Sequence record: LR597663
DNA length: 64,000 bases
Origin: Escherichia phage VpaE1_ev78
Reading direction: 5' to 3' (one strand)
The position numbers were made by a program, and so were the translations under genes. Shown here one piece after another: positions 1 to 10,455 of the stretch (within the stretch, counting starts at the first letter, position 1; every line of letters begins with the position of its first letter). The notes below the pieces were generated by a model. The model was not told the DNA's origin and searched no databases. It worked only from the letters and a program-made list of their open reading frames with translations.

Positions 1-57
1 TTGCATATGGCGAATTAATTGATACAGAGCCATCACTATTGTAATTAAAACTTACTG

Positions 58-291
58 TTAACATTTTTCAGTTCTCCTGCGATTTATAATTTTGCTGCAA
101 TAGAGAAACGAAGTAAACTCACTGGAAGAAACCATTAAGTGTTGTTCACTAGATTGAGCCATTGCCCTGAAATACATTCCAGTCAAAGCATCATAGTGAC
201 TATTCTTTCCAATTGAGGTTATATAGCCATGACTCTTTGCAGTTTGATATAAATCTATAATATCTGCGATTTCTAATTGGGAACTACACAT
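58..291 (-). CDS. hypothetical protein (77 aa)
   Basis: Minus-strand ORF with AAGAGGA Shine-Dalgarno about 6 nt upstream of ATG; divergent from the plus-strand early operon. Confidence 0.45.
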   Translation of the reverse strand: MCSSQLEIADIIDLYQTAKSHGYITSIGKNSHYDALTGMYFRAMAQSSEQHLMVSSSEFTSFLYCSKIINRRRTEKC

Positions 292-434
292 AGATAATCC
301 TCTTGTCTTCTGTAATTTTGAAAGAACAGGTACAGACCAATTTCAGAGGATGAATAGTAGATTAACTCTACCCTTTTTGATTCCTTACAGTGATTGGTAT
401 TCTTACCTTTCTTCGGTTTATTTGATTTTCTCAT
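273..434 (-). CDS. hypothetical small basic protein (about 53 aa from internal ATG)
   Basis: ORF 273..455 trimmed to ATG preceded by GGAGA RBS; Lys-rich N-terminus; overlaps start of downstream ORF. Confidence 0.3.
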   Translation of the reverse strand: MRKSNKPKKGKNTNHCKESKRVELIYYSSSEIGLYLFFQNYRRQEDYLCVVPN

Positions 435-529
435 TAAGTCTCCTTTGTAGAACAAGGCAGACCTACAGCTTTAAGTAAGATGGTACAGTAATCCATACAA
501 CAAGTCAAGAACTATTGCAAGTTAAAAAA

Positions 530-575
530 GTTGTTGACAAAGTACTTGACAAGGTGTAGGCTTATAAATACTTAG
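530..575 (+). promoter_or_regulatory. promoter-like element with tandem TTGACA hexamers (GTTGACAAAGTACTTGACAAGGTGT), A/T-rich -10 candidates downstream
   Basis: Two TTGACA boxes 12 nt apart followed by TATAAATA; near-identical copy at about 42018-42048. Confidence 0.45.
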
Positions 576-683
576 AAGATAACTTAAAAGGTTCCTCTAA
601 AAAGGCTATTTAAACAGATATCTTTCTGGATATCTATCTTTTATCTTAAAAGCCTTTTAAGAGGTCTTATAAGAGGCATACCA

Positions 684-1055
684 ATGAAAAACAGAACAAA
701 CAAAGGCCAGTTTAAAAAAGGCCAATCTGGAAACCCATCTGGAAGACCAAAAGGCTCTCGTAACAAAAGTTCACTTGTAAAAGCTCAACTGACCATTGAT
801 AATTCTGCTGAGTTTGCTGCAAAGTTGTTTGAAGCGATTGTTACAAGGGACGCTGCTAAGCTTGCAGAGTTCGGTTTGACGACTGACGATGTAAACCTGA
901 AGTCGATGATGGAAGCTGGTAAAACTATCATGACTCACTCAGCAGGTGAGATGAAAGCGATTGCAGCAGACACTAAGAAGACACCTGATAATGGTGGTCA
1001 GTCTCAGGCAGATAACAAACCAACGTTCTCTGCTGTAGCGACTCTCAAAAAATAA
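684..1055 (+). CDS. hypothetical protein with N-terminal KGQSGNPSGRPKG motif (DUF5681-like, recalled not searched)
   Basis: ATG with AAGAGG RBS; basic Gly/Pro motif at N-terminus, Ala/Lys-rich helical remainder. Confidence 0.65.
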   Translation: MKNRTNKGQFKKGQSGNPSGRPKGSRNKSSLVKAQLTIDNSAEFAAKLFEAIVTRDAAKLAEFGLTTDDVNLKSMMEAGKTIMTHSAGEMKAIAADTKKTPDNGGQSQADNKPTFSAVATLKK

Positions 1056-1067
1056 TTTTAAAAGGTG

Positions 1068-1097
1068 TTGACAGACTCTACAAAGTTGCTCTAAAGT
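1068..1097 (+). promoter_or_regulatory. sigma70-like promoter candidate (TTGACA, 18 nt spacer, TAAAGT)
   Basis: Consensus -35 hexamer read directly; -10 is a weaker match. Confidence 0.45.
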
Positions 1098-1136
1098 CTG
1101 TCACATCAAACAACAAATGAGAGAAGAGAGTAAAAT

Positions 1137-2552
1137 ATGAGCGAATTATTTAAACATGCGCACCTTCATGCAGGTCGAACTGAAAATGGTGCTGTAAACC
1201 ATACTTCATCAATGTCTGCTCTTGTGGACTTTTATAAAGCTGCTGGTTCAAGCCGTAGCAATGTAGAAGTCTTACCAGACCTGTTCTACAAAGCTTTGCG
1301 TGAGGATGTTGATGTTGCAGTTCGTATTTTGCTTCATATGCGAGATGTACGAGAAGGTATGGGTGAGCGTAAAGCCTTCAGAACTGTTTTGCTTCAAGCG
1401 ATTGAAGACAAAGTTTTAGAGCCTGTACAGGTTCTTCGCATTATGGATAAGATTGCAGAACTTGGTCGTTTTGATGACTTCAAAATCTTCGTAGGTACTC
1501 GTTTCGAGACAGATGCCTTCAAACATTTAGAAGCAGCATTACTAGACCCTGCAACAGCAGGTTTGGCAGCCAAGTGGCTACCACGAGTCAAACCACGTCA
1601 TAAGCAGTTTGTAAAACGTTTCTGCAAGTTTGCCAACTTGAGTGAGAAAGAGTACCGCACACTGTTGTCTGCACTATCTGATACAGTTGAGCAAAAAATC
1701 TCTGCTAATGAGTTTGGTAAGATTGACTACAGTAAGATTCCTTCTCTTGCTGCTGCACGTTACCAAAAGCTGTTTAACCGTAAAGATGGAGAGCGTTACA
1801 AAGCTTACATCGAGTCCTTATCAAAGGGTGAGGCTAAGATTAATGCTGGTGCTGTTTACCCATACGATGTGATTAAATCTGTCAAGCATGGTAATGCAGA
1901 TGTTGCTAATGAGCAGTGGAAAGCACTACCAAACTGGATGGCAGAAGGTGAAAACATCTTATGTATGACTGATGTTTCAAGCTCAATGTCTTGGGTGAAT
2001 TTTGGCTCCATTACTGCTCTTGATATTGGTGTATCACTTGCCTTGTATGTAGCAGAACGCAATACAGGTTGCTTTAAGGATGAGTTGATGGTTTATTCAA
2101 CAAACCCTCACTTCATCGAACTGAGTGGTGATTTACGAAACCGTCATCGTCAGGTGATGCGACACGTTGAATATGGCTCAACCAACTTACAAGCAGCTTT
2201 TGACCGCATTCTTGAGATAGGTAAGAGAAACAACTTGACTCAGGAAGATATGCCAAGTAAGCTTATCATCTTCTCCGATATGGAGTTCAATCAGGTTGAT
2301 GGAGCTAACGGTCGTACAAACTTTGAAGCAATTCAGAGCAAGTACAAGAAAGCTGGATATGAGATGCCACAACTGGTATTCTGGTACTTAGCAAACCGTA
2401 ATGGTACTTGCGAAGTGTCTGTTAAGGATAACGGTGTAGCAATGGTATCTGGTTTCTCTCCAGCCACTTTAAAAGCTCTGCTTGGTGGTGAGAAGTTTGA
2501 CCCAATCAGCGTAATGCTCAAAGCAGTAATGATTGACCGCTATATCTGGTAA
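1137..2552 (+). CDS. vWA-domain protein with MIDAS motif and N-terminal helical domain (DUF2828-like / Ro60-like architecture)
   Basis: C-terminal half contains DxSxS (TDVSSSM), a conserved Thr (GSTNL) and Asp (FSDMEF) typical of vWA MIDAS; N-terminal 260 aa predicted helical; RBS GAGAAGAGAG upstream. Confidence 0.75.
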   Translation: MSELFKHAHLHAGRTENGAVNHTSSMSALVDFYKAAGSSRSNVEVLPDLFYKALREDVDVAVRILLHMRDVREGMGERKAFRTVLLQAIEDKVLEPVQVLRIMDKIAELGRFDDFKIFVGTRFETDAFKHLEAALLDPATAGLAAKWLPRVKPRHKQFVKRFCKFANLSEKEYRTLLSALSDTVEQKISANEFGKIDYSKIPSLAAARYQKLFNRKDGERYKAYIESLSKGEAKINAGAVYPYDVIKSVKHGNADVANEQWKALPNWMAEGENILCMTDVSSSMSWVNFGSITALDIGVSLALYVAERNTGCFKDELMVYSTNPHFIELSGDLRNRHRQVMRHVEYGSTNLQAAFDRILEIGKRNNLTQEDMPSKLIIFSDMEFNQVDGANGRTNFEAIQSKYKKAGYEMPQLVFWYLANRNGTCEVSVKDNGVAMVSGFSPATLKALLGGEKFDPISVMLKAVMIDRYIW

Positions 2553-2569
2553 AAAGTTTTAAAAAGGGT

Positions 2570-2598
2570 ATTGACAATGTGTTTAATACCCTTTAATA
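2570..2598 (+). promoter_or_regulatory. sigma70-like promoter (TTGACA, 17 nt, TAATAT); -35 sits inside inverted repeat AAGGGTATT / AATACCCTT
   Basis: Hexamers and spacing read directly from sequence. Confidence 0.55.
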
Positions 2599-2661
2599 TG
2601 TTCTACATAGAAACGAAATGAGAGCTTTTCTAAGATACTGAAAAATATTTTAAAAAAGTTC

Positions 2662-2691
2662 TTGACAATCACTAAAAAATAATGTTAAAGT
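2662..2691 (+). promoter_or_regulatory. sigma70-like promoter upstream of tRNA array (TTGACA, 17-18 nt, TTAAAG/TAAAGT)
   Basis: Consensus -35, approximate -10, about 25 nt upstream of first tRNA. Confidence 0.5.
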
Positions 2692-2716
2692 GGTTACATA
2701 GAGTTTGAAAAGTTTA

Positions 2717-2794
2717 TCTCTGTTTAGCTCAGCTTGGTAGAGCGTTCCGTTTGGGGCGGTAAGGCCGGAGGTTCAAGTCCTCCAACAGAGACCA
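2717..2794 (+). tRNA. tRNA-Pro (anticodon TGG)
   Basis: Hand-folded cloverleaf: 7-bp acceptor CTCTGTT/AACAGAG, D-loop AGCTTGGTAG, T-arm GGAGG-TTCAAGT-CCTCC, anticodon loop TTTGGGG, CCA encoded. Confidence 0.7.
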
Positions 2795-2801
2795 AATTAA
2801 T

Positions 2802-2879
2802 GTTCCAGTAGACAAAATGGTAAAGTCACCACTCTTTCAAAGTGGATATCTGAGGGTTCAAATCCCTTCTGGAACGCCA
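2802..2879 (+). tRNA. tRNA-Glu (anticodon TTC)
   Basis: Acceptor GTTCCAG/CTGGAAC, anticodon arm CCACT-CTTTCAA-AGTGG, T-loop TTCAAAT, CCA encoded. Confidence 0.7.
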
Positions 2880-2885
2880 GTTTTG

Positions 2886-2910
2886 ACAGAAGACCAATTG
2901 CAGCAAACTT
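2886..2910 (+). repeat. tRNA-spacer motif ACAGAAGACC-N5-CAGCAA, copy 1; followed about 60 nt later by GGTCTGG
   Basis: Motif recurs at about 3053, 3449 and 3535, partial copy near 6168. Confidence 0.6.
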
Positions 2911-2970
2911 AATCTTATTCATCTGAAGGTAAATCGGACAAAGAAGAGATTTGGTCTGGTCATTAAGAAT

Positions 2971-3047
2971 TGCGGGTATAGAGAAAGGGCGTCTCACATG
3001 TCTCATTAGCATGGTATCGGCAGGTTCGACTCCTGCACCCGCCTCCA
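2971..3047 (+). tRNA. tRNA with CAT anticodon (Met / initiator / Ile-lysidine type undetermined)
   Basis: T-arm GCAGG-TTCGACT-CCTGC, acceptor with 1:72 mismatch, anticodon stem built on palindromic CATG; position 37 appears to be T, which is atypical. Confidence 0.5.
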
Positions 3048-3052
3048 AATTT

Positions 3053-3077
3053 ACAGAAGACCGTTTACAGCAATATT
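3053..3077 (+). repeat. tRNA-spacer motif ACAGAAGACC-N5-CAGCAA, copy 2
   Basis: TTACAGAAGACCGTTTACAGCAA; GGTCTGG about 58 nt downstream. Confidence 0.6.
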
Positions 3078-3131
3078 TATTAAATTTTTAGCGGAAAAAA
3101 TTGAAAGATACGGTCTGGTAACACTAAACAT

Positions 3132-3208
3132 GGTTAGGAAGCACATAAGGTATGTGCGGTCGCCTGTTAAGCGAATGGCACAGGGTTCGAATCCCTGACT
3201 AACCGCCA
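3132..3208 (+). tRNA. tRNA-Asn (anticodon GTT)
   Basis: Acceptor GGTTAGG/ACTAACC, anticodon loop CTGTTAA, T-arm CAGGG-TTCGAAT-CCCTG, CCA encoded. Confidence 0.7.
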
Positions 3209-3217
3209 AATTTAAAT

Positions 3218-3305
3218 GTGTCGTTATCCCGTAGATGGTAGCGGTGGGGACTGTAAATCCCTTGTCATTGAGACTCGGTAGGTTCGACTCCTACACGGCA
3301 CACCA
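3218..3305 (+). tRNA. tRNA-Tyr (anticodon GTA), long variable arm
   Basis: 88 nt; acceptor GTGTCGT/ACGGCAC, anticodon arm GGGGA-CTGTAAA-TCCCT, T-loop TTCGACT. Confidence 0.7.
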
Positions 3306-3310
3306 ATAAA

Positions 3311-3388
3311 GGTTATGTAGTTTAATTTGGTTAAAATACTCCCCTGTCACGGGAGATGATGAGGGTTCAAATCCCTTCGTAACCGCCA
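3311..3388 (+). tRNA. tRNA-Asp (anticodon GTC)
   Basis: Acceptor GGTTATG/CGTAACC, anticodon arm CTCCC-CTGTCAC-GGGAG, T-loop TTCAAAT. Confidence 0.7.
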
Positions 3389-3448
3389 ATTTTGAGAGGG
3401 CTATTTAGCCCCTCCCTTAAAGAGTTCTTACGAGTATTCTTTAAAGGA

Positions 3449-3472
3449 GCAGAAGACCAAATACAGCAAGTT
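3449..3472 (+). repeat. tRNA-spacer motif, copy 3 (GCAGAAGACCAAATACAGCAA)
   Basis: Same motif family; GGTCTGG about 67 nt downstream. Confidence 0.55.
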
Positions 3473-3534
3473 ATTTAAAATTTCAAGCCAATTTAATTTT
3501 GAAAAATTTAAAACTTGGTCTGGCTCAACAAATT

Positions 3535-3560
3535 TACAGAAGACCGTTTACAGCAAAACT
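3535..3560 (+). repeat. tRNA-spacer motif, copy 4 (TTACAGAAGACCGTTTACAGCAA)
   Basis: Identical core to copy 2. Confidence 0.6.
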
Positions 3561-3591
3561 TAACAATCTATTTCTCCGGTAAAGAAAAGGC

Positions 3592-3626
3592 GAAGGTTCG
3601 ATTCCTTCACTCGGCAGATGTCGAGT
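3592..3626 (+). ncRNA. tRNA-like minihelix: canonical T-arm (GAAGG-TTCGATT-CCTTC) directly followed by a 7-bp acceptor-like hairpin (ACTCGGC-AGAT-GTCGAGT); no D or anticodon arm found
   Basis: T-loop consensus present but no complementary 5-prime acceptor strand within 120 nt upstream; complementary strand lies immediately downstream. Confidence 0.4.
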
Positions 3627-3668
3627 TGGTGTAATGGTAGTACTTAAGATGATAAACAACGGTCTGGT

Positions 3669-3688
3669 AATTATCTTTGTAGATAAGT
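3669..3688 (+). repeat. hairpin element TTATCT-TTGT-AGATAA preceded by GGTCTGG
   Basis: Second copy with inverted loop (TTATCT-ACAA-AGATAA) at about 3795-3810; the two flank roughly 105 nt. Confidence 0.55.
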
Positions 3689-3792
3689 TATTAAGCTTAC
3701 CTGTGAGTATGCGACCACAAAGGGTGAAAGGGTAAATTCTAGATTTAAACCCAAAAAGGCACATCGCTACAGACCTTAAGCAAGTCTGGGTA

Positions 3793-3812
3793 GCTTATCT
3801 ACAAAGATAATT
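3793..3812 (+). repeat. hairpin element TTATCT-ACAA-AGATAA, second copy, preceded by GTCTGGG
   Basis: Reverse complement of the copy at 3669-3688. Confidence 0.55.
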
Positions 3813-3816
3813 TAAT

Positions 3817-3892
3817 GGAAGTGTAGCAGAATGGTGATGCGGCAGACTTTTAATCTGACAGGCGATGGGTTCGAATCCCTCCACTTCTACCA
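3817..3892 (+). tRNA. tRNA-Lys (anticodon TTT)
   Basis: Acceptor GGAAGTG/CACTTCT, anticodon loop CTTTTAA, T-loop TTCGAAT; two outer T-stem mismatches. Confidence 0.6.
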
Positions 3893-3896
3893 ATAT

Positions 3897-3973
3897 GGTT
3901 CAGTCGCAGATAAGGTAATGCAAGGGTCTCATAAGCCCTATGAATGTGGGTTCGATTCCCATCTGAACCTCCA
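3897..3973 (+). tRNA. tRNA-Met (anticodon CAT)
   Basis: Acceptor GGTTCAG/CTGAACC, anticodon arm AGGGT-CTCATAA-GCCCT, T-loop TTCGATT, CCA encoded. Confidence 0.65.
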
Positions 3974-3974
3974 A

Positions 3975-4050
3975 GCTGGTATAGTTAAGAAGGTTATAAC
4001 ACTCCCCTGATAAGGGAACATCGGTGGTTCGATTCCACCTACCAGTACCA
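3975..4050 (+). tRNA. tRNA-Ile (anticodon GAT)
   Basis: Acceptor GCTGGTA/TACCAGT, anticodon loop CTGATAA, T-arm GGTGG-TTCGATT-CCACC. Confidence 0.65.
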
Positions 4051-4065
4051 ATTTCAATAAAGTTG

Positions 4066-4094
4066 TTGACATTGAGATGTGACTACTTTATAGT
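4066..4094 (+). promoter_or_regulatory. sigma70-like promoter (TTGACA, 17 nt, TATAGT)
   Basis: Near-consensus hexamers with 17-nt spacer inside the tRNA array. Confidence 0.6.
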
Positions 4095-4298
4095 AACCTT
4101 AGTTTTCGTTGCGTAGCGTCTATTTTGCAAATTTAAAATAAATGCAAACGACAATGTTTTTCTGGCAGTAGCTTGATAGGCTAAACACCAGTGAGGTCTT
4201 CCAATCCCTCATCAAAGAATTTGGCGTACTCGCCCACGGTATGATTAATAAGGTGGGCATCTTTAAGGGCTTTCTAAGAGAGTCTTTAAAGATAATTA

Positions 4299-4380
4299 CG
4301 GGGCGTATCTCAGCGGTCTTCTAAACCGCCGTTAACCGAGTAAGTGGAGTATGCGGGTTCGAGTCCTGCCGCCTCGACCA
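4299..4380 (+). tRNA. atypical tRNA-like gene (82 nt): acceptor and T-arm canonical, anticodon-like hairpin with loop CTTCTAA (TCT, Arg-like), no recognisable D-arm, 23-nt extra region
   Basis: Acceptor CGGGGCG/CGCCTCG, T-arm GCGGG-TTCGAGT-CCTGC, CCA encoded; the only strong internal hairpin is GCGGT-CTTCTAA-ACCGC right after positions 8-9. Confidence 0.45.
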
Positions 4381-4394
4381 ATTTTGGAGAAATC

Positions 4395-4742
4395 ATGAAA
4401 ACTTGTATTAGGTGCAAACTTAGCAAGGATGAAAATGATTTCTACATGAAAGATGGTAGGAGAACTCATTCATACTGTAAAAAGTGTGTTAATGAGCAAA
4501 CCATAGAAAGACAAAGAGCACTTAAACTCTCAGCTATTGAGTACAAAGGTGGGGTTTGTCACGATTGTGGTAAAAAGTATCATCCAGCAGTGTATGACTT
4601 CCATCATTTGAATCCTTCAGAGAAAGATTTTAACATTGGTCATAGGAAAAGCCTTAAGTTCTCTCAAGAACTAAAAGATGAACTTGACAAATGTGTTTTG
4701 CTATGTTCAAATTGCCATAGGGTAAGACATGCAAAGTATTAG
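4395..4742 (+). CDS. HNH homing endonuclease
   Basis: Motif DFHHLNPSEKDF...CVLLCSNCHRVRH; ORF-track start lies inside the upstream tRNA, so trimmed to ATG at 4395 (RBS GGAGA). Confidence 0.8.
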   Translation: MKTCIRCKLSKDENDFYMKDGRRTHSYCKKCVNEQTIERQRALKLSAIEYKGGVCHDCGKKYHPAVYDFHHLNPSEKDFNIGHRKSLKFSQELKDELDKCVLLCSNCHRVRHAKY

Positions 4743-4885
4743 TTAGCAGATTACTTAGACGACCTAAGCGGGTCTTCCTGTAGGGAGGTGGTCTGTATCT
4801 CATGTTTTCCAGAACATGTAAATAATCTGAGAAGAAGCTTGACAGTGTTGAGATAACAGGGTAAGCTTCGAATTATAGTTTTAAT

Positions 4886-4956
4886 AGGGGTGAGCTATGG
4901 CAGCAATAGAGTCTCCAAAATTCTTGATTAGAGTTCGAATCTCTACACCCCTGCCA
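4886..4956 (+). tRNA. tRNA-Trp (anticodon CCA), short with reduced D-arm
   Basis: Acceptor AGGGGTG/CACCCCT, anticodon arm AGAGT-CTCCAAA-ATTCT, T-arm TAGAG-TTCGAAT-CTCTA; about 71 nt. Confidence 0.55.
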
Positions 4957-4970
4957 GAACAGGTGCTTGT

Positions 4971-5375
4971 ATGAAACTTTGTAGAAAATGTTCTCAAGAA
5001 AAGCCTTTAAGCTGCTTTCATAAAAGAGGTAATGGCTATCAGTCTGCTTGCAAAGATTGTAAAGCTAAGTACTCAGCAAAGAGATACAAAGAAGACCCTA
5101 CTTATAAAGCAAAAAGAAAAGTTAGGGCAAAATATGACAAAAAGAGGAACAGAGAGTTCCTTAGTAGATATAAAAAGTTTTGCAAATGCAGAATATGTGG
5201 CGAATCTGAGCCAGTAGCTTTGGATTTTCATCACTTAGACCCTAAAGAGAAAGATTTTGCTCCAAGCAATCTTAAAACTTACTCTAGGGGCACTATTAAG
5301 CGTGAAGTCCGTAAGTGTGTTGTGCTTTGTTCAAACTGTCATAGGAAAGTTCATGAAGGACTGTTAAGTATTTAA
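4971..5375 (+). CDS. HNH homing endonuclease (paralogue of 4395..4742)
   Basis: Motif DFHHLDPKEKDF...CVVLCSNCHRKVH; RBS AGGTG. Confidence 0.8.
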   Translation: MKLCRKCSQEKPLSCFHKRGNGYQSACKDCKAKYSAKRYKEDPTYKAKRKVRAKYDKKRNREFLSRYKKFCKCRICGESEPVALDFHHLDPKEKDFAPSNLKTYSRGTIKREVRKCVVLCSNCHRKVHEGLLSI

Positions 5376-5388
5376 CAGTCTTATTAGG

Positions 5389-5476
5389 GGTAGGTAGCGG
5401 CTAATGGTAGCCAAACTGTCTTGAAAACAGTTGCCACTGTAGAGATACGGTGAGGGTTCGACTCCTTTACTTACCG
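5389..5476 (+). tRNA. tRNA-Ser (anticodon TGA), long variable arm
   Basis: Acceptor GGTAGGT/ACTTACC, anticodon arm ACTGT-CTTGAAA-ACAGT, T-loop TTCGACT; CCA not encoded. Confidence 0.65.
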
Positions 5477-5633
5477 CCTAATAAGATTTAAAGCCAAGCT
5501 TCATTCGGATGTTGCTTTGGTATCCCGCGTGTATTGTTGTACACACTGATAAAGCACCTAGTAGGTGTCACGGAGAAGAGATAATATCAAGCTCTCCAAA
5601 GGTTCTAGTCACCGGATTAAACAAGACTATGCA

Positions 5634-5654
5634 AAGACCTTTTTAGGTCTTTTT
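5634..5654 (+). terminator. possible intrinsic terminator or processing hairpin (AAGACC-TTTTTA-GGTCTT plus TTTT)
   Basis: Short hairpin followed by T-run inside the tRNA array. Confidence 0.3.
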
Positions 5655-5733
5655 AGAGGGCTTCTAAGGTTATTACAGCTTGTTGTGGAACCTTGTTGCT
5701 TAGGTTCTTAGAAGTTCTCTAAAAAGATTTAAT

Positions 5734-5811
5734 GGGAGATTGACGGTAATTGGTAAACCTATCTCGCTTAGAACGAGATGTTTGAGGGTTCGAATCCCTT
5801 GTCTCCTACCA
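5734..5811 (+). tRNA. tRNA with TAG anticodon (nominally Leu) but type-I short variable arm
   Basis: Acceptor GGGAGAT/GTCTCCT, anticodon arm TCTCG-CTTAGAA-CGAGA, T-arm GAGGG-TTCGAAT-CCCTT; variable region about 5 nt. Confidence 0.55.
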
Positions 5812-5818
5812 AATTAAT

Positions 5819-5894
5819 GCAGGTGTAGCAAAATGGTTATGCGGCTGACTCTTAATCAGTAAGACGATGGGTTCAATTCCCTCCACCTGTACCA
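5819..5894 (+). tRNA. tRNA-Lys (anticodon CTT)
   Basis: Acceptor GCAGGTG/CACCTGT, anticodon loop CTCTTAA, T-loop TTCAATT; similar to the 3817 tRNA. Confidence 0.6.
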
Positions 5895-5899
5895 AAAAT

Positions 5900-5975
5900 G
5901 GGGTCATAGTTTATATGGTTAAAATTCGAGTTTTGCAAACTTGGGAACTGAGTTCAATTCTCAGTGACTCCACCA
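5900..5975 (+). tRNA. tRNA-Ala (anticodon TGC)
   Basis: Acceptor GGGGTCA/TGACTCC, anticodon arm CGAGT-TTTGCAA-ACTTG, T-arm CTGAG-TTCAATT-CTCAG. Confidence 0.65.
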
Positions 5976-5981
5976 ATTAGT

Positions 5982-6056
5982 GCATCCATAGTTTAAACGG
6001 GAAAATTACAGTCTTCCAAACTGAGGTTGAGGGTTCGATTCCCTCTGGATGCTCCA
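5982..6056 (+). tRNA. tRNA-Gly (anticodon TCC)
   Basis: Acceptor GCATCCA/TGGATGC, anticodon loop CTTCCAA, T-arm GAGGG-TTCGATT-CCCTC. Confidence 0.65.
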
Positions 6057-6063
6057 AATTAAT

Positions 6064-6139
6064 GCTCCTATCGTATAATTGGCTATTACGGTTGCCTTGT
6101 AAGTAACTTATCAGGGTTCGAATCCTTGTGGGAGCACCA
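6064..6139 (+). tRNA. tRNA-Thr (anticodon TGT)
   Basis: Acceptor GCTCCTA/TGGGAGC, anticodon arm GTTGC-CTTGTAA-GTAAC, T-loop TTCGAAT. Confidence 0.65.
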
Positions 6140-6236
6140 ATTTAGAGGTCAAGTGAAAGACCGCTTTGAGTCAACTGAAGACCGTAACAAATTCCACGGA
6201 GTTGAGTTAGCGGCACAACTCCAGACCTCTTCTCAC

Positions 6237-6311
6237 ACTCGCTTAGTTTATATGGTAAAACACCACCCTTACAAGATGAAGAAAAAGGTTCAAGTCCTTT
6301 AGTGAGTACCA
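6237..6311 (+). tRNA. tRNA, probably Val (anticodon TAC); weak anticodon stem
   Basis: Acceptor ACTCGCT/AGTGAGT, T-arm AAAGG-TTCAAGT-CCTTT, anticodon loop CTTACAA with two stem mismatches. Confidence 0.45.
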
Positions 6312-6312
6312 T

Positions 6313-6390
6313 GTTCCAGTATCCCAATTGGCAGAGGATGCAAGCTCAAACCTTGTACTAGTGATGGTTCGAATCCATCTTGGAACACCA
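6313..6390 (+). tRNA. tRNA with CAA anticodon (nominally Leu) but type-I short variable arm
   Basis: Acceptor GTTCCAG/TTGGAAC, anticodon arm GCAAG-CTCAAAC-CTTGT, T-arm GATGG-TTCGAAT-CCATC. Confidence 0.5.
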
Positions 6391-6395
6391 ATTTT

Positions 6396-6471
6396 GCAGG
6401 ATTAGTTCAAATGGATAGAGCAACAGTCTACGAAGCTGTTAATAGGGGTTCAAATCCCTTATCCTGCGCCA
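6396..6471 (+). tRNA. tRNA-Arg (anticodon ACG)
   Basis: Acceptor GCAGGAT/ATCCTGC, anticodon arm ACAGT-CTACGAA-GCTGT, T-loop TTCAAAT. Confidence 0.65.
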
Positions 6472-6490
6472 ATTTAAAGAGGCTATTTAG

Positions 6491-7048
6491 ATGAGATATT
6501 TGAAGTATGCTTCATGGATTTTCTTAGCTTTGTTAGAACCATTTGCAGCAATCTTAGCAGTTATCTTAGCACCTTTTGTAGTTCCATTCTACAGTGAGAA
6601 GAAAGGACACTTACCTTTCGGGTTCAGATGGATGGAGACATATGACAACCCAATTGATGGTGATGAAGGTCACGTTAAAAGATGGGCTAATATTAGATGG
6701 ATTGGTAAACTAGGTGTCTACATGCAAAGAGTCGGATGGCTCTGGAGAAACAAAGCTTATAACTTCTCTTACCATGTGTTAGGAAGAGATGTAAAAGATG
6801 TTACTAAGTGGAAAGGTAATATCAACGTAAGTTCTAACCCTGAAGATAATCAGACAGGTTATCTCCTAATGTGGAACAGTAATGCTTGGGGATTATTCGC
6901 TTTTACCCCATCAATTAAAATCTTTGGTAAACAGTTTTACTGGAGAATTTATATTGGGTGGAAGCTAAAAAGTGTTGTCCCAGAAGAAAGAGCATTCTCA
7001 AGGGAAAGAGTTATGTTGGCATTCTTTATTCATCCACTAAGAAAGTAA
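6491..7048 (+). CDS. Trp-rich membrane protein of unknown function (185 aa) inside the tRNA array
   Basis: RBS AAAGAGG; hydrophobic N-terminal segment WIFLALLEPFAAILAVILAPFVVPF; many Trp residues. Confidence 0.65.
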   Translation: MRYLKYASWIFLALLEPFAAILAVILAPFVVPFYSEKKGHLPFGFRWMETYDNPIDGDEGHVKRWANIRWIGKLGVYMQRVGWLWRNKAYNFSYHVLGRDVKDVTKWKGNINVSSNPEDNQTGYLLMWNSNAWGLFAFTPSIKIFGKQFYWRIYIGWKLKSVVPEERAFSRERVMLAFFIHPLRK

Positions 7049-7056
7049 AGATTTAA

Positions 7057-7132
7057 AGGGGATTAGTTTACAAGGTTAAAACCTCGGTCTTTGAAATCGA
7101 AGAAGTTGGTTCAATTCCAACATCCCCCGCCA
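7057..7132 (+). tRNA. tRNA-Gln (anticodon TTG)
   Basis: Acceptor AGGGGAT/ATCCCCC with 1:72 mismatch, anticodon loop CTTTGAA, T-arm GTTGG-TTCAATT-CCAAC. Confidence 0.6.
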
Positions 7133-7134
7133 AT

Positions 7135-7213
7135 GCTCCATTACTCCAATTGGCAGAGAGGCCAGACTTAAAATCTGTGTTATGTATCGGTTCGAATCCG
7201 ATATGGAGTACCA
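7135..7213 (+). tRNA. tRNA with TAA anticodon (nominally Leu) but type-I variable arm (about 7 nt)
   Basis: Acceptor GCTCCAT/ATGGAGT, anticodon loop CTTAAAA, T-arm ATCGG-TTCGAAT-CCGAT. Confidence 0.5.
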
Positions 7214-7218
7214 AATTT

Positions 7219-7294
7219 AGCGGTATAGCATAACTGGCAATGCAGCAGCCTCTGAAGCTGTCCTATTAAGGTTCAAATCCTTATGCCGCTGCCA
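7219..7294 (+). tRNA. tRNA-Gln (anticodon CTG)
   Basis: Acceptor AGCGGTA/TGCCGCT, anticodon arm GCAGC-CTCTGAA-GCTGT, T-arm TAAGG-TTCAAAT-CCTTA. Confidence 0.6.
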
Positions 7295-7325
7295 CTTCTA
7301 AGGATTCTTACGAGAGTCCTTAAAT

Positions 7326-7401
7326 GTGGCCTTATCATAAATGGTAATGACCCATGCTGTGAACATGGTCTATACGGGTTCAAATCCCGTAGGTCACCCC
7401 A
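7326..7401 (+). tRNA. tRNA-His (anticodon GTG)
   Basis: Acceptor GTGGCCT/AGGTCAC, perfect anticodon arm CCATG-CTGTGAA-CATGG, T-arm ACGGG-TTCAAAT-CCCGT. Confidence 0.7.
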
Positions 7402-7406
7402 ATTTA

Positions 7407-7481
7407 TAGTCCAAGTAGCTTATATGGTTAAAGCGCGTGTCTGAAAAACATGAGAAGAGGGTTCAAATCCCACTGGACTAC
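7407..7481 (+). tRNA. tRNA-Phe (anticodon GAA)
   Basis: Acceptor TAGTCCA/TGGACTA, anticodon arm CGTGT-CTGAAAA-ACATG, T-loop TTCAAAT; CCA not fully encoded. Confidence 0.6.
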
Positions 7482-7499
7482 CAATTTCAAAGGTGCTTA

Positions 7500-8234
7500 A
7501 TGAAAGAGATGACAGAACAAGGTAAGGAGATTTTTAATCTCTTAAAAACCGGTAAAGGGTTCTCTAACCCACTTATTACTGGTGCAGCAGTTCTCGGTGG
7601 AACCGTAGCTGCTTCTACATCACTTGTAAGCTCTATTAGTTCTGTAACAGACCCTACAATGAAGGAGAAACTTGTTGCTGCTGGACTTACAACAGTCCTT
7701 CTAAACAGCTTTACAACAAGCCTTACAAGCACTACAGCAACTACTAAAACTCTGACAGACTACGGTCAAAAGTCTATTGATGAGTTTTCATCACGTATGC
7801 AGGTAGCAAAGGGGTATTCCAATGTTATGGGTGCAGCAGGAGAACAAGTTGGTTGTACACCATTCAGTGGTATCATGGGTGTTGCTACAGAGTATGGTCA
7901 AAAAGCTATTGACATGATGAACAGTACACTAGATAGTGTTAATGGTGTGTTAAGTGACTTGCAAGATGCTATTGATAAGGGTCTTGATACTGTTTCTGAT
8001 TTAGCTAATCAGGCTGTTAGTAAGATTAATGAAGGTATTTCAAAGATTACAGCTTATGCAGATGAAGTTGTGCAGATGATTGAAGAAGAAGCTGCCCTTA
8101 TTGCAGAGTACCTTAAAACGAATATCAATGGGTTCTTAGCAGGTATCTTACCAGACTGGTTTGATGATGCCTGTAAAACTGGTGTGATTGACACTATTGC
8201 AACACCAGAAATGAAGAGCGCATTACAGAAATAA
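7500..8234 (+). CDS. hypothetical Ser/Thr/Ala-rich protein (244 aa) inside the tRNA array
   Basis: ORF-track start overlaps tRNA-Phe; trimmed to in-frame ATG at 7500; low-complexity T/S/A/G-rich middle. Confidence 0.5.
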   Translation: MKEMTEQGKEIFNLLKTGKGFSNPLITGAAVLGGTVAASTSLVSSISSVTDPTMKEKLVAAGLTTVLLNSFTTSLTSTTATTKTLTDYGQKSIDEFSSRMQVAKGYSNVMGAAGEQVGCTPFSGIMGVATEYGQKAIDMMNSTLDSVNGVLSDLQDAIDKGLDTVSDLANQAVSKINEGISKITAYADEVVQMIEEEAALIAEYLKTNINGFLAGILPDWFDDACKTGVIDTIATPEMKSALQK

Positions 8235-8236
8235 AT

Positions 8237-8329
8237 GGAAGATTAACCCTAAAAGGTAAGGGAGCAGTTTGCTAAACTGCCAGTAGCTGAGAAATCGGTG
8301 TACCAGTTCAAGTCTGGTATCTTCCTCCA
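8237..8329 (+). tRNA. tRNA-Ser (anticodon GCT), long variable arm
   Basis: 93 nt; acceptor GGAAGAT/ATCTTCC, anticodon arm GCAGT-TTGCTAA-ACTGC, T-arm ACCAG-TTCAAGT-CTGGT; starts 3 nt after upstream stop. Confidence 0.7.
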
Positions 8330-8333
8330 ATTT

Positions 8334-8409
8334 GAATCCGTGACAGAAATGGCTATGTGCCTGTCTGCAAAACAGGTTTATAAGGGTTCGAGTCCCTTCG
8401 GATTCTCCA
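8334..8409 (+). tRNA. tRNA-Cys (anticodon GCA)
   Basis: Acceptor GAATCCG/CGGATTC, anticodon arm CCTGT-CTGCAAA-ACAGG, T-arm AAGGG-TTCGAGT-CCCTT. Confidence 0.7.
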
Positions 8410-8446
8410 AGTTATTTTACTCTCTCTCAATTAAAATAATAATAAT

Positions 8447-8516
8447 GCCCTGCTATAAGTATTCTTCCTTTCGCTACCGAAGAGTATTTTTAGACAGGGC
8501 TTTTTTACAGAGTTAT
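8447..8516 (+). terminator. intrinsic terminator closing the tRNA array (long imperfect hairpin GCCCTG...CAGGGC plus TTTTTT)
   Basis: Stem arms with internal sub-stem, followed by six T. Confidence 0.55.
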
Positions 8517-8571
8517 ACTTTATAAGAAGGCTTATACAGTATGTCTCTGACGTACATTGTGGTTTCTCCTT

Positions 8572-8595
8572 GACGGTCTCTGTGCCGTCTTTTTT
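8572..8595 (+). terminator. intrinsic terminator (GACGG-TCTCTGTG-CCGTC plus TTTTTT)
   Basis: GC-rich 5-bp stem and T-run immediately upstream of structural module. Confidence 0.6.
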
Positions 8596-8631
8596 AAGGA
8601 GAAACATGGTTAATTATTTGGAGAAAACATA

Positions 8632-8832
8632 ATGAGTGAGACCGTTTATAAAGAACTTTATGAAGCTAATAAGAAGCTAGAATTTATGCAGAATACTATC
8701 ATGGCAATTGCAGACAGATTGTCTGTAGCAACAGGTATTGATATTAAAGAAGCATCTATGGATGCACTTCTTGATGCTGTTGATGCAAAGTTCGAAGTTA
8801 AGAAAGAAGAGACTGCTACAGACTCTGAATAA
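8632..8832 (+). CDS. hypothetical small acidic protein (66 aa), possible terminase-associated
   Basis: RBS GGAG; directly upstream of terminase large subunit; assignment positional only. Confidence 0.45.
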   Translation: MSETVYKELYEANKKLEFMQNTIMAIADRLSVATGIDIKEASMDALLDAVDAKFEVKKEETATDSE

Positions 8833-8853
8833 TTCTATTTGCGGAGGCGCTTA

Positions 8854-10455
8854 ATGGACTTAAATGCTGTTAAGCAGAAGCGAGTGGAAGATGTTAGGAA
8901 AGTCCTAGCTGGAGAGTTGGGGCTTTCTGATGAAGTAAAAGAAATTATCAAATCATTCGGTAAAGACCCCTCTAAATTCCTTCCAACTCAAATTCTGACT
9001 TTATTAAGATACACACCAGACCAAGTTCGCCTTATCTTTAAATTGATGACTGATAAGAACTATGTAGCCCCTCAACCGGGTTCTCAAGAGGTCTTTTTAA
9101 ATACTAATGCTGACTTGGTTCTTTATGGTGGTGCTGCTGGTGCTGGTAAAACTGCTGCATTGTTAATGGACTCTTTAAGATTTATTGAAGACCCTAACTA
9201 TAATGCTGTATATTTCCGTCGAAATACAACACAGTTACAAGGTGGTTTATGGCCTGCTGCAAAGAAACTATTTGGTAAGTTTGGTGGGATTCCTCACGAG
9301 CAGAAGATGACTATCACATTCCCTTCTGGGGCAACTATCAAGTTTACCTACCTAGAACTTGAAAAGCACGCTGAAGGTCATCAGGGTATTGAATACTCAG
9401 CTATTTACTTTGACGAAGGTACACACTTCTCTGCTTCACAGATTTCATACCTACAAACCCGTCTACGTTCTGGTGCTGAAGGCGATTCATACATGAAGAT
9501 TTCCATGAACCCAGACAGAGACCATTTTATTTATGATTGGGTAGAACCATTCTTAGATGAAGAAGGTTATCCAGACCCTGAAAAGTGTGGTCGTATTCGT
9601 TGGTATGTAATGAATGATGGTGTGATGGTTTCTGATTGGGAGAGAGACAAGATTCTTGAAATGTTCCCTCTTGAGATTCCTCAAACATACACCTTTATCT
9701 CTGGTACGATTGATGATAACCCAATCCTTGACTTCTTAGAGCCTAAGTACCGTGGTAAGTTGGAAAACAACACCCCTGTAAACGTTGCAAGACTTCGTTT
9801 CGGTAACTGGAAGGCTCGTGCAGAAGGTTCAAACTATTGGCAAAGACAATGGTGTGAAATTGTTGATTCACTCCCAGAAGATGTATTTGATGTTAGAGCA
9901 TGGGACTTAGCAGCAACTTTACCATCTGAGATTAACCCTAATCCAGACTGGACAGCAGGTGTTAAGATGGGTAAATCTAAAAAAGACGGTTGCTATTATA
10001 TCATTGATGTAGTAAGATTTAGAGATAGACCCTCTGGAGTCGAAACACAAATTAATTTGACTGCTGAAAGTGACGGTAAGCGAACTGGTATTTTTATCCC
10101 TCAAGACCCAGGCGCTGCTGGTAAATCCTACGCAACATCCCTCATCAGGAAACTTGCCGAGAAAGGCTATCGTGCAAGAGCTAAACCAACAAATAAAGAT
10201 AAAGTTACCCGATTTGCGGGGTTTTCTGCTGCTTCTGAAGCTGGACTTGTAAAAGTCTTGAGAGGTAGTTGGAACGAAGCTTACTTCCAAGAACTTGAAG
10301 GCTTTTGTGGTGATGGTAAAACTAAAGATGACCAAGTGGATGCTACCAGTGATGCTTTCAACAGTCTTAACGAAGTTAAATTATTCAAGCCACCATCAAT
10401 GGGTGCTCACACAGACTTAGTGAGAGGAAACCCATATGAGGGGCTTAGACGTTGA
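8854..10455 (+). CDS. terminase large subunit
   Basis: Walker A LYGGAAGAGKTAAL, Walker B-like IYFDEGTH, C-terminal nuclease-like region; start trimmed to ATG with GGAGG RBS. Confidence 0.85.
   Translation: MDLNAVKQKRVEDVRKVLAGELGLSDEVKEIIKSFGKDPSKFLPTQILTLLRYTPDQVRLIFKLMTDKNYVAPQPGSQEVFLNTNADLVLYGGAAGAGKTAALLMDSLRFIEDPNYNAVYFRRNTTQLQGGLWPAAKKLFGKFGGIPHEQKMTITFPSGATIKFTYLELEKHAEGHQGIEYSAIYFDEGTHFSASQISYLQTRLRSGAEGDSYMKISMNPDRDHFIYDWVEPFLDEEGYPDPEKCGRIRWYVMNDGVMVSDWERDKILEMFPLEIPQTYTFISGTIDDNPILDFLEPKYRGKLENNTPVNVARLRFGNWKARAEGSNYWQRQWCEIVDSLPEDVFDVRAWDLAATLPSEINPNPDWTAGVKMGKSKKDGCYYIIDVVRFRDRPSGVETQINLTAESDGKRTGIFIPQDPGAAGKSYATSLIRKLAEKGYRARAKPTNKDKVTRFAGFSAASEAGLVKVLRGSWNEAYFQELEGFCGDGKTKDDQVDATSDAFNSLNEVKLFKPPSMGAHTDLVRGNPYEGLRR

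Follow-up and report, generated by a model that had tools for sequence, protein, structure and literature searches.

Four small elements in the spacers of the tRNA array of Escherichia phage VpaE1_ev78, a Felixounavirus, are probably Y-RNA-like partner RNA genes of a Ro60-like protein and are probably co-transcribed with the tRNAs. The DNA analyzed (referred to as "the window") was the whole 64,000-nt stretch from sequence record LR597663. Particles composed of Ro60 and Y RNA have been described in animals, in some bacteria and in a few phages that carry a canonical Ro60. The elements would specify four small structured non-coding RNAs of one family, read from the tRNA promoters; three of them would be simple hairpins of the YrlB kind, and one would be YrlA-like. 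An earlier, sequence-only reading of this DNA had reported a reiterated motif in the array; both the Ro60-like gene directly upstream and a tRNA-like domain within the fourth copy were overlooked in it.

The motif, CAGAAGACC-N5-CAGCAA, was found in four exact copies on the plus strand (at 2887, 3054, 3450 and 3537), and no further copy was located in the 64 kb when two mismatches were allowed. Because 0.23 copies were expected by chance and four were reached in 0 of 100 shuffles, the reported repetition of the motif in tRNA spacers was upheld. The sequence GGTCTGG occurs at four plus-strand sites in the entire window (2953, 3112, 3517 and 3661), each of them 3′ of one motif copy. The distances from motif start to GGTCTGG are 66, 58, 67 and 124 nt; thus, the previously proposed spacing of 55–70 nt is correct for copies 1–3 and incorrect for copy 4. 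A partial complementarity of GGTCTGG to the AGACC core had also been noted. The pairing is real and longer than was noted, with the motif and GGTCTGG serving as the two arms of one fold that has the same closing architecture in all four stretches. The inner helix comprises 7–8 bp (AGACCNN/NNGGUCU), and the outer helix comprises 4 bp (UGAC/GUCA, UUAC/GUAA, GAGC/GCUC and UUAC/GUAA in elements 1–4, respectively). Between the two helices, AGA on the 5′ side is placed opposite a single G on the 3′ side. This internal loop was compared by eye to a kink-turn and to a bulge-helix-bulge, and both were rejected because the 3′ strand lacks the required G·A pairs or a second bulge. The CAGCAA hexamer is single-stranded and is located 2–3 nt past the 5′ strand of the inner helix.

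The sequence changes among copies were those expected of a paired RNA. Within the window, the inner helix features a compensatory change (CCAA/UUGG versus CCGU/ACGG). For the outer helix, 10 distinct variants from Felixounavirus, Suspvirus and Mooglevirus (Ounavirinae) were examined, and 40 of 40 cells were paired; the variants included A-U/G-C swaps and G·U intermediates, and the G·U pairs mean that the structure fits only a plus-strand RNA. The loops between the arms are AU-rich and strongly divergent among close relatives, with the arms and CAGCAA held constant. The description of the elements as non-coding was confirmed in that the region is overlapped only by short open reading frames (ORFs; 31–83 aa), several of which also overlap tRNAs.

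Scores for the individual elements were obtained with R1, a covariance model described below. Element 1 (2884–2962, ca. 79 nt, hairpin type, 46.3 bits) is composed of the outer helix (2884–2887/2959–2962), AGA (2888–2890), the inner helix (2891–2897/2951–2957), CAGCAA (2901–2906) and the bulged G (2958), and it is situated between tRNA-Glu (ending at 2879) and tRNA-Met (starting at 2971). Element 2 (3051–3121, ca. 71 nt, hairpin type, 61.7 bits) is situated between tRNA-Met (ending at 3047) and tRNA-Asn (starting at 3132); its outer helix is 3051–3054/3118–3121, its inner helix 3058–3064/3110–3116, its CAGCAA 3068–3073 and its single G 3117. In element 3 (3447–3526, ca. 80 nt, hairpin type, 55.5 bits, fold z-score −2.55), the corresponding parts are 3447–3450/3523–3526, 3454–3460/3515–3521, 3464–3469 and 3522. 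Element 4 (3534–3670, ca. 137 nt, YrlA type) was matched at 29.7 bits (E = 3e-4) even though it was outside the seed alignment of the model; its outer helix is 3534–3537/3667–3670, its inner helix 3541–3548/3658–3665, its CAGCAA 3551–3556 and its G 3666. All four are on the plus strand, as are the 26 tRNA genes detected by ARAGORN between 2718 and 8409; ARAGORN called a tRNA in none of the four elements. Elements 1 and 2 start 4–5 nt past one tRNA and end 8–10 nt short of the next. The proposal that the elements are placed just upstream of tRNA 5′ ends therefore applies to these two (ahead of tRNA-Met at 2971 and tRNA-Asn at 3132) and not to the others, as the next feature past element 3 is element 4, and past element 4 a 149-nt hairpin. 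The region from 2600 to 4100 is 99.6% identical to Escherichia phage VpaE1_ev108.

Only these four elements were detected by R1 in the window; the next match scored 18.6 bits. The sequence near 6168 (GAAGACCGU), which had been listed as a further partial copy, was rejected as a family member, since no match was returned by the covariance model with the filters off and the sequence is part of an unrelated hairpin. That hairpin (6140–6236, z-score −3.2) occupies the spacer between tRNA-Thr and tRNA-Val and is 94–100% conserved across Ounavirinae loci.

Homologues of the Ro60-like protein were located on 80 viral contigs, five of them close (98% protein identity) and 75 distant (39–48%), and several annotated phages were added. 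The exact Felixounavirus motif was present in the close Felixounavirus relatives and not in the distant loci, so a degenerate descriptor was used. In 794 kb of homologue-bearing loci, the sequence-only pattern AGR-N7-CAGCAA had 117 matches on the strand of the gene versus 6 on the opposite strand, almost always no more than about 1 kb from the gene on either side. For 94 of the 117 matches, there was a 3′ arm within 220 nt that was complementary over 7 bp or more, compared to 22% for random AGR sites, and G followed the 3′ arm in 91 of the 104 matches having an arm of at least 6 bp. An element conforming to the strict pattern, in the same-strand arrangement with the Ro60-like gene that was seen in the window, was present in 47 of 85 loci. 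When the whole collection was scanned with the exact 15-base pattern, mostly single matches were obtained, and these are probably due to chance.

The consensus of this structure, termed the handle, can be written as an A-R-R-N4 helix strand, about 3 nt, CAGCAA, the variable interior, N4-Y-Y-U and then G. Its helix has 7 bp across phages; the first pair is nearly always A-U, the second and third are purine-pyrimidine (G-C or A-U), and the remaining four are free, co-varying pairs. The AGA/G internal loop and the 4-bp outer helix are additions to the handle in Felixounavirus. The outer helix was rejected as a family-wide feature because 55.6% of cells were paired when 31 diverse members were held in one fixed register. 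The handle adjoins homologues at 29–48% protein identity, including those of Listeria and mycobacterial phages and of bacterial-genome contigs, and all 107 model matches in these sets of loci were on the strand of the gene. In locus L007 (48% protein identity), where a tRNA array is located 3′ of the gene, the spacers contain AGAGCAC...GUGCUCU-G, AGAGCAGU...ACUGCUCU-G and AGGACAC...GUGUCCU-G, each with CAGCAA at the same spacing.

A seed of 31 short members was used to build model R1. The viral set consisted of 76 diverged loci, namely the 75 distant contigs and that of Klebsiella phage FBKp34 (39–52% protein identity), and 57 matches with E ≤ 0.1 were obtained in 47 of them, all 57 on the strand of the gene. 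A held-out set was composed of 80 bacterial-genome contigs (33–42% identity), Listeria phage AG20 and mycobacteriophage LilDestine; by record title, the contigs were binned with Clostridia, Chloroflexota, Spirochaetia, Izemoplasmatales, Rickettsiales and others. All 53 matches in this set were on the strand of the gene, mostly just 5′ of it. In the held-out alignment, 99.4% of cells were paired, all seven pairs were altered on both sides, and 133 compensatory cells were counted versus 34 ± 7 in shuffles; slid registers were paired at 37–44%. CAGCAA was retained in 51–53 of 53 sequences per position, and the 3′ G was present in 50 of 51. Three tandem copies were found just 5′ of the gene in AG20, and three copies with arms of the type UGG.../...CCA-G were found 3′ of the gene in LilDestine. 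The loci had just one gene family in common, DUF2828 (158 of 159); the RtcB ligase, which ranked next among real families, was present in 19 of 159. The tRNA arrays of T5-, rV5- and T4-like phages yielded nothing above 17.4 bits with the handle model.

What the handle encloses differs greatly among loci. The cargo observed included simple hairpins, tRNA mimics in permuted form, one complete tRNA, and structured RNAs of 100–330 nt that belong to no known family. The last of these fall into several recurrent classes and were seen in L009, L011, L014 and L022 (ca. 5390–5800), in L049, L060, L068, L072 and L074 (ca. 3450–3910), and in L008 (2840–3069), L018 (628–838) and L028 (3409–3659). Nine of these loci (L009, L022, L049, L060, L068, L072, L008, L018 and L028) were scanned, and no Rfam family matched their cargo RNAs at its gathering score. 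In L041 (3734–3840), a genuine, unpermuted tRNA (Rfam tRNA, 52.9 bits, 3753–3824) is enclosed by the handle arms. In AG20 (L086, Listeria phage vB_LmoM_AG20), a ROOL RNA (90 bits, E = 3e-17, slightly below the gathering score), the three tandem handles, the Ro60-like gene and an RtcB "tRNA splicing ligase" form one same-strand block among tRNAs (1428–1979, 2612–2891, 5713–7020). In FBKp34 (L083, Klebsiella phage vB_KpM_FBKp34), a 114-nt annotated tRNA-Asp (6003–6116; Rfam tRNA, 47.7 bits) with an apparent long insertion is located just 3′ of two handles. Minimal handle hairpins of 32–36 nt end 12–17 nt 5′ of the start codon of the Ro60-like gene, by the ribosome-binding site, in L008 (3954–3986), L015 (1764–1795), L018 (2859–2890) and L028 (3950–3985); as a matter of speculation, a protein-RNA contact could be reused there for autoregulation.

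The proposed protein partner is the 471-aa product of a plus-strand gene (1137–2552; ORF 1137–2549) with DUF2828 and DUF7788/vWA regions. From the end of this coding sequence (CDS), the elements are 342, 509, 905 and 992 nt distant on the same strand. Pfam matches were obtained to DUF7788 (4.8e-44), to DUF2828 (6.3e-30) and, weakly, to VWA_2, and PHROG 850 ("RNA-binding protein") was also matched; NCBIfam returned no match. Over its full length, the protein is 34% identical to mycobacteriophage proteins annotated as "Ro-like RNA binding protein". No match was returned by a sequence search of the PDB, and the likeness to Ro60 surfaced only when folds were compared. An AlphaFold2 model based on 37 homologues had a predicted local distance difference test (pLDDT) score of 88.6. 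In a Foldseek search of the PDB with this model, the best 11 matches were all Ro60, Rsr or TROVE structures, with alignments that spanned the full length (E = 4e-8 to 2e-6; template-modeling (TM) scores 0.44–0.65), including Xenopus Ro with RNA, Deinococcus Rsr and the Ro60 of Thermus phage phiLo. The residues of the MIDAS (the adhesion site that depends on a metal ion), D279, S281 and S283, are invariant. Compared with a Ro60 (TROVE HEAT-repeat ring plus vWA domain), the ORF upstream of the elements thus models as a Ro60 fold, a likeness at the level of fold only.

The orthologue in Escherichia phage Bas63 is bas63_0130 (gp130), which occupies the same position ahead of the tRNA array, and all four elements are present in Bas63 as well. 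A 2024 preprint reported that this orthologue counters bacterial defense and offered the guess that "some tRNA genes" are Y RNAs; the RNAs were not identified in it. In the Bas63 record (L291, MZ501086.1), two "hypothetical proteins" are annotated on the minus strand at 3167–3319 (bas63_0137) and 3331–3441 (bas63_0138). The former is antisense over elements 3 and 4, and the latter is antisense over the 3′ end of element 4 and the next hairpin; both are probably annotation artefacts. In SUSP2, a CDS is likewise annotated across elements 1–2.

Element 4 differs from the other three in that its interior is a tRNA mimic in the permuted layout of YrlA; it is classed as a YrlA-type RNA on the basis of its sequence. 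The tRNA-like domain (3592–3643, plus strand) was delineated from a reading of the sequence, a partial Rfam tRNA match and RNAalifold. It contains a T arm (3592–3608, GAAGG-UUCGAUU-CCUUC), an acceptor-like stem of 7 bp with a short loop closing it (3609–3615/3620–3626, ACUCGGC-AGAU-GUCGAGU) and a D arm (ca. 3629–3643, GUGU-AAUGGUA-GUAC), i.e. the T, closed acceptor and D stem-loops by which the YrlA subtype is recognized. In Salmonella YrlA, nt 33–81 have the same order of T, acceptor and D between the strands of the stem, and YrlA has been described as a circular permutation of a tRNA in which the acceptor stem is closed (10.1101/312249; PMC4201824). The Rfam tRNA model matched only part of element 4 (3560–3609, 22 bits; gathering score 29). 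The elements are not tRNAs by the usual criteria: ARAGORN made no call, and the acceptor of element 4 is closed, with no anticodon loop present. RNAalifold was applied to element 4 together with nine relatives found at other loci, some of them orthologues and others tRNA-like members at a greater distance, the tRNA-like members being drawn from Felixounavirus, Mooglevirus, Suspvirus, L007, Klebsiella phage FBKp34, L079 and LilDestine. The consensus of the 10 sequences featured the closing helix, the T arm, the closed acceptor stem and the D arm, with compensatory change in 17 of 23 pairs (e.g. ACUCGGC/GUCGAGU in element 4 versus ACACGU/GCGUGU in SUSP2 and Sf14). Conservation was also seen for GUUCRA in the T loop and for GG in the D loop. 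The YrlA of M. smegmatis has a 7-bp acceptor stem, is cleaved by RNase P and is a substrate for CCA addition (PMC4201824); given that the acceptor-like stem of element 4 is also 7 bp long, RNase P cleavage before G3620 is predicted by analogy.

Two sigma-70-like promoters were recognized on the plus strand by match to the consensus only. The first (2571–2599, TTGACA-17-TAATAT, 10 of 12 matches) is upstream of the tRNA/small-RNA cluster, and the second (2662–2691, TTGACA-18-TAAAGT with TG, 10 of 12) is directly upstream of tRNA-Pro. Under the intrinsic-terminator test that was applied (GC-rich hairpin with a U tract after it), no terminator-like site was found on the plus strand from the second promoter to 4050, and none was found within 2880–3680. 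Because both promoters precede tRNA-Pro and no plus-strand terminator intervenes before 4050, elements 1–4 are probably contained in the tRNA precursor. The RNAs would presumably be released by the nucleases that trim the adjacent tRNAs; elements 1 and 2 are so tightly flanked by tRNAs that 5′ and 3′ processing of the latter would leave RNAs closed by their stems. Pairing of the ends would close each RNA and create the conserved handle, which is the most likely binding site for the Ro60-like ring. We infer this contact from how well the handle is conserved, from its constant geometry and from its being linked exclusively to one gene, and from the analogies of Ro60 with Y RNA and of phiLo Ro60 with its Yrl RNAs. 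By analogy with Ro60/Y ribonucleoproteins (RNPs), in which the loops of Y RNAs tether PNPase, the variable parts might, in infected cells, bring in or gate further factors (e.g. exoribonucleases or tRNA enzymes).

In function and layout, the elements would be Y RNAs of the YrlA/YrlB kind, the function being assigned by analogy. The genes of bacterial Y RNAs share the strand of Ro60 and are no more than 4 kb away from it, in several copies and with possible co-transcription with tRNA (PMC4201824); all four elements are located within that distance of the Ro60-like gene and on its strand. Like YrlA and YrlB of Salmonella and Mycobacterium (PMC4201824), they are found a few kb from the gene of a Ro60-like ring protein, several per locus, with paired ends that form the protein-binding stem (by analogy in the present case) and a variable other half; one member per locus has a permuted tRNA mimic, and co-transcription with tRNA is possible. 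RtcB is also a neighbor in both cases, in the rsr-yrlBA-rtcBA operon of Salmonella and in the 19 loci counted above. There are differences as well. The partner here is a DUF2828/DUF7788 protein that is Ro60-like at the fold level and is not a Pfam TROVE protein; the GNCGAAN0-1G motif is replaced by a purine-rich start of the helix (A-R-R, AGA in the window), the 3′ G and the single-stranded CAGCAA; and the elements are embedded in the 26–27-gene tRNA array of a virulent phage.

Among phages, the Ro60 of Thermus phage phiLo binds two phage-encoded Y-like RNAs, Yrl1 and Yrl2; binding was demonstrated in vitro, and a complex with the host PNPase was reported (PMC12135203). PhiLo and the phages with YrlA-like RNAs (mycobacteriophages, CcrColossus and Bacillus phage G; PMC12135203; PMC4201824) resemble the present case in having a phage Ro60 with phage RNAs adjoining its gene. 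They differ in that their proteins are recognized Ro60 homologues (annotated as TROVE in Chen 2014) and their RNAs were found by means of the CGAA motif. The earlier survey of Y RNAs was limited to TROVE-annotated genomes, and the present family was outside that search (PMC4201824). Metazoan Y RNAs are also modular, with a terminal stem whose asymmetric bulge or internal loop binds Ro60, a variable loop that binds other proteins, and several paralogues per genome; unlike the elements, they lack a tRNA-like domain and are encoded individually as Pol III genes, and there is no sequence similarity between the two groups. The tRNA clusters of T4 and T5 encode small stable RNAs of unknown function that are cut from the same precursors as the tRNAs. 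They are set apart from the elements by the handle model, which finds nothing in T4-like or T5-like tRNA regions; no T4- or T5-like phage is among the records listed for the Ro60-like gene, a listing that is not a genome-by-genome check.

Several observations weigh against assigning the elements to a Ro60-like partner. The protein has no match to Pfam TROVE. The closing helices, whose 5′ strand reads NNNC-AGA-AGACCNN, do not contain the Ro-binding motif GNCGAAN0-1G; the sole match in the four elements is GGCGAAG (3589–3595), in the T stem of element 4. In Rfam 15, no family other than tRNA matched the elements (E ≤ 1 in window positions 1–10000 and three loci; gathering score in 15 loci). As a family, the elements accordingly lack two defining features of Y RNAs, the Ro-binding motif and agreement with a curated covariance model, and the protein represents a divergent branch. 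Further, Bas63 gp130 by itself, supplied on a plasmid or in a T7 genome, restores growth on a strain carrying the ppl defense (PMC11482910), which means that the RNAs are not needed for the anti-ppl activity. About half of the loci have no R1 match with E ≤ 0.1 (matched: 47 of 76 viral and 38 of 80 genome loci), and some of these R1-negative loci hold visible variants, e.g. UGGUUCC-GUA-CAGCAA or CUGCAA. Alignments made by a model are biased toward the structure of that model. Finally, the loci were selected for carrying the gene, and the linkage hence rests on strand, position, the three negative-control arrays and one 64-kb window.

The handle could be a real conserved RNA structure that does not have the Ro60-like protein as a stable partner and that instead serves a host factor, another phage protein, or a role in cis as an operator or stability element. 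We regard this as unlikely, though it is the strongest of the alternatives considered. The activity of gp130 against ppl without the RNAs is in its favor, and the 32–36-nt hairpins 12–17 nt 5′ of the Ro60-like start codon would suit translational autoregulation. However, an operator adjoining the gene would itself imply binding by the protein, and the elements of the window are located 342–1100 nt past the stop codon, beyond two promoter-like sites and two tRNAs. Tandem arrays of three to four copies with large and distinct cargo, tRNA mimics included, exceed the needs of an operator in an untranslated region, and the loci have no other gene family in common. That the elements are aids to the processing or folding of a polycistronic tRNA precursor (RNase III sites, or spacers that guide RNase E or RNase P), with no independent RNA, is improbable. 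Elements 1 and 2, in tRNA spacers, do end 8–10 nt before a tRNA 5′ end, and the RNase III sites of phage T7 are hairpins with internal loops. Yet the handle adjoins the gene in loci where ARAGORN detected no tRNA (e.g. L065), is missing from three tRNA arrays of phages that do not belong to the gene-bearing group, and has helices totaling just 11–12 bp; its near-invariant single-stranded hexamer at a fixed spacing points to sequence-specific recognition by a protein.

Much less credible is the notion that the elements are functionless repeat debris, either tRNA genes that have decayed or miniature mobile elements bounded by inverted ends. The tRNA-like arms of element 4 could be taken as such remains, and two ORFs in the array with weak HNH similarity could drive rearrangements, but the elements are syntenic across three Ounavirinae genera, with loops that diverge or are replaced and a handle that is kept by compensatory changes, and the handle is conserved down to 29% identity of the neighboring protein. 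Least weight of all is given to a signal at the DNA level, i.e. a phage-specific promoter or a site bound by a DNA-binding protein. It was suggested by TTGACA in copy 1 and TTTACA in copies 2 and 4, just 5′ of the motif, and by a weak promoter-like match (9 of 12) that overlaps copy 2, the only copy to give one when −35 and −10 hexamers at a spacing of 16–18 nt were sought. There is no consistent −10 sequence (it differs in every copy), copy 3 has no −35-like hexamer, and the flanks in distant loci are unrelated; moreover, the 3′ arm co-varies with the 5′ arm, the G·U pairs fit one strand as RNA, and the strand bias is 117 to 6. A promoter in particular was rejected because no −10 is shared, because a distant 3′ arm that co-varies over 30–250 nt is needless for a promoter, and because good sigma-70-like sites are present elsewhere (2571–2599, 2662–2691 and 4066–4094). 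Among the options that the sequence-only reading had left open, small RNA genes are therefore retained, and promoters and generic tRNA-processing signals are set aside.

Other features of the array were recorded. Directly 3′ of element 4, positions 3666–3814 can adopt a very stable 149-nt fold (−48.3 kcal/mol, z-score −5.5) with a closing stem of ca. 24 bp around a multibranch interior and no handle motif. It is 98–100% conserved in Felixounavirus loci, no blastn match to it was found in Sf14 or SUSP2, and it may be another small RNA gene. A conserved non-coding stretch of 248 nt (4051–4298; 90–100% in relatives) is associated with the best promoter match of the region (TTGACA-17-TATAGT, 4066–4094), being 3′ of it; Rfam gave transfer-messenger RNA (tmRNA) at 29 bits and permuted tmRNA at 16 bits, below the gathering score of 47, with no other Rfam match, and ARAGORN reported no tmRNA. 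A tRNA-Arg(UCU)-like gene (4299–4377; Rfam tRNA, 31.7 bits) was missed by ARAGORN. It is annotated as tRNA-Arg in relatives, and the array thus probably has 27 tRNAs. Small ORFs with Cys-rich HNH-like motifs (4395–4739 and 4971–5372; Pfam HNH weak, below threshold) are located on either side of tRNA-Trp (4886–4956). In VpaE1_ev108, the closest relative, the gap between tRNA-Arg and tRNA-Ser is shorter, and neither a CDS nor tRNA-Trp is annotated there; this arrangement resembles the insertion of a homing endonuclease. In non-coding spacers, short palindromes such as TTAAAGAG...CTCTTTAA or TTCTAAG...CTTA are repeated (3416–3447, 4262–4290, 7296–7325 and ca. 588–680).

The handle system was found in phages of Proteobacteria, Firmicutes and Actinobacteria and in contigs binned with many other bacterial phyla. 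The DUF2828 branch, much larger than the few phages with a canonical Ro60, yielded 2,839 protein clusters (E ≤ 1e-5) among 8,000 scored candidates, with 709 phage records. In the searchable literature on DUF2828, Ro-like proteins, phage Y RNA and the Felix O1 genome, no RNA partner of DUF2828 proteins and no account of these elements were found. There are about as good grounds to accept as to doubt that DUF2828 proteins and their RNAs constitute an unrecognized and very widespread phage RNP system, in which a universal handle with interchangeable cargo would serve RNA repair, RNA turnover or anti-defense. The analysis names specific spacer elements, rather than "some tRNA genes", as candidate Y RNAs and defines the handle that they have in common, and thus exact RNAs and mutations become testable in a tractable E. 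coli phage. The handle also provides a route to the annotation of hundreds of unexplained non-coding stretches by these genes, some of which are currently annotated as small antisense ORFs, and it may link phage tRNA arrays, tRNA mimicry, the RtcB repair ligase and anti-defense.

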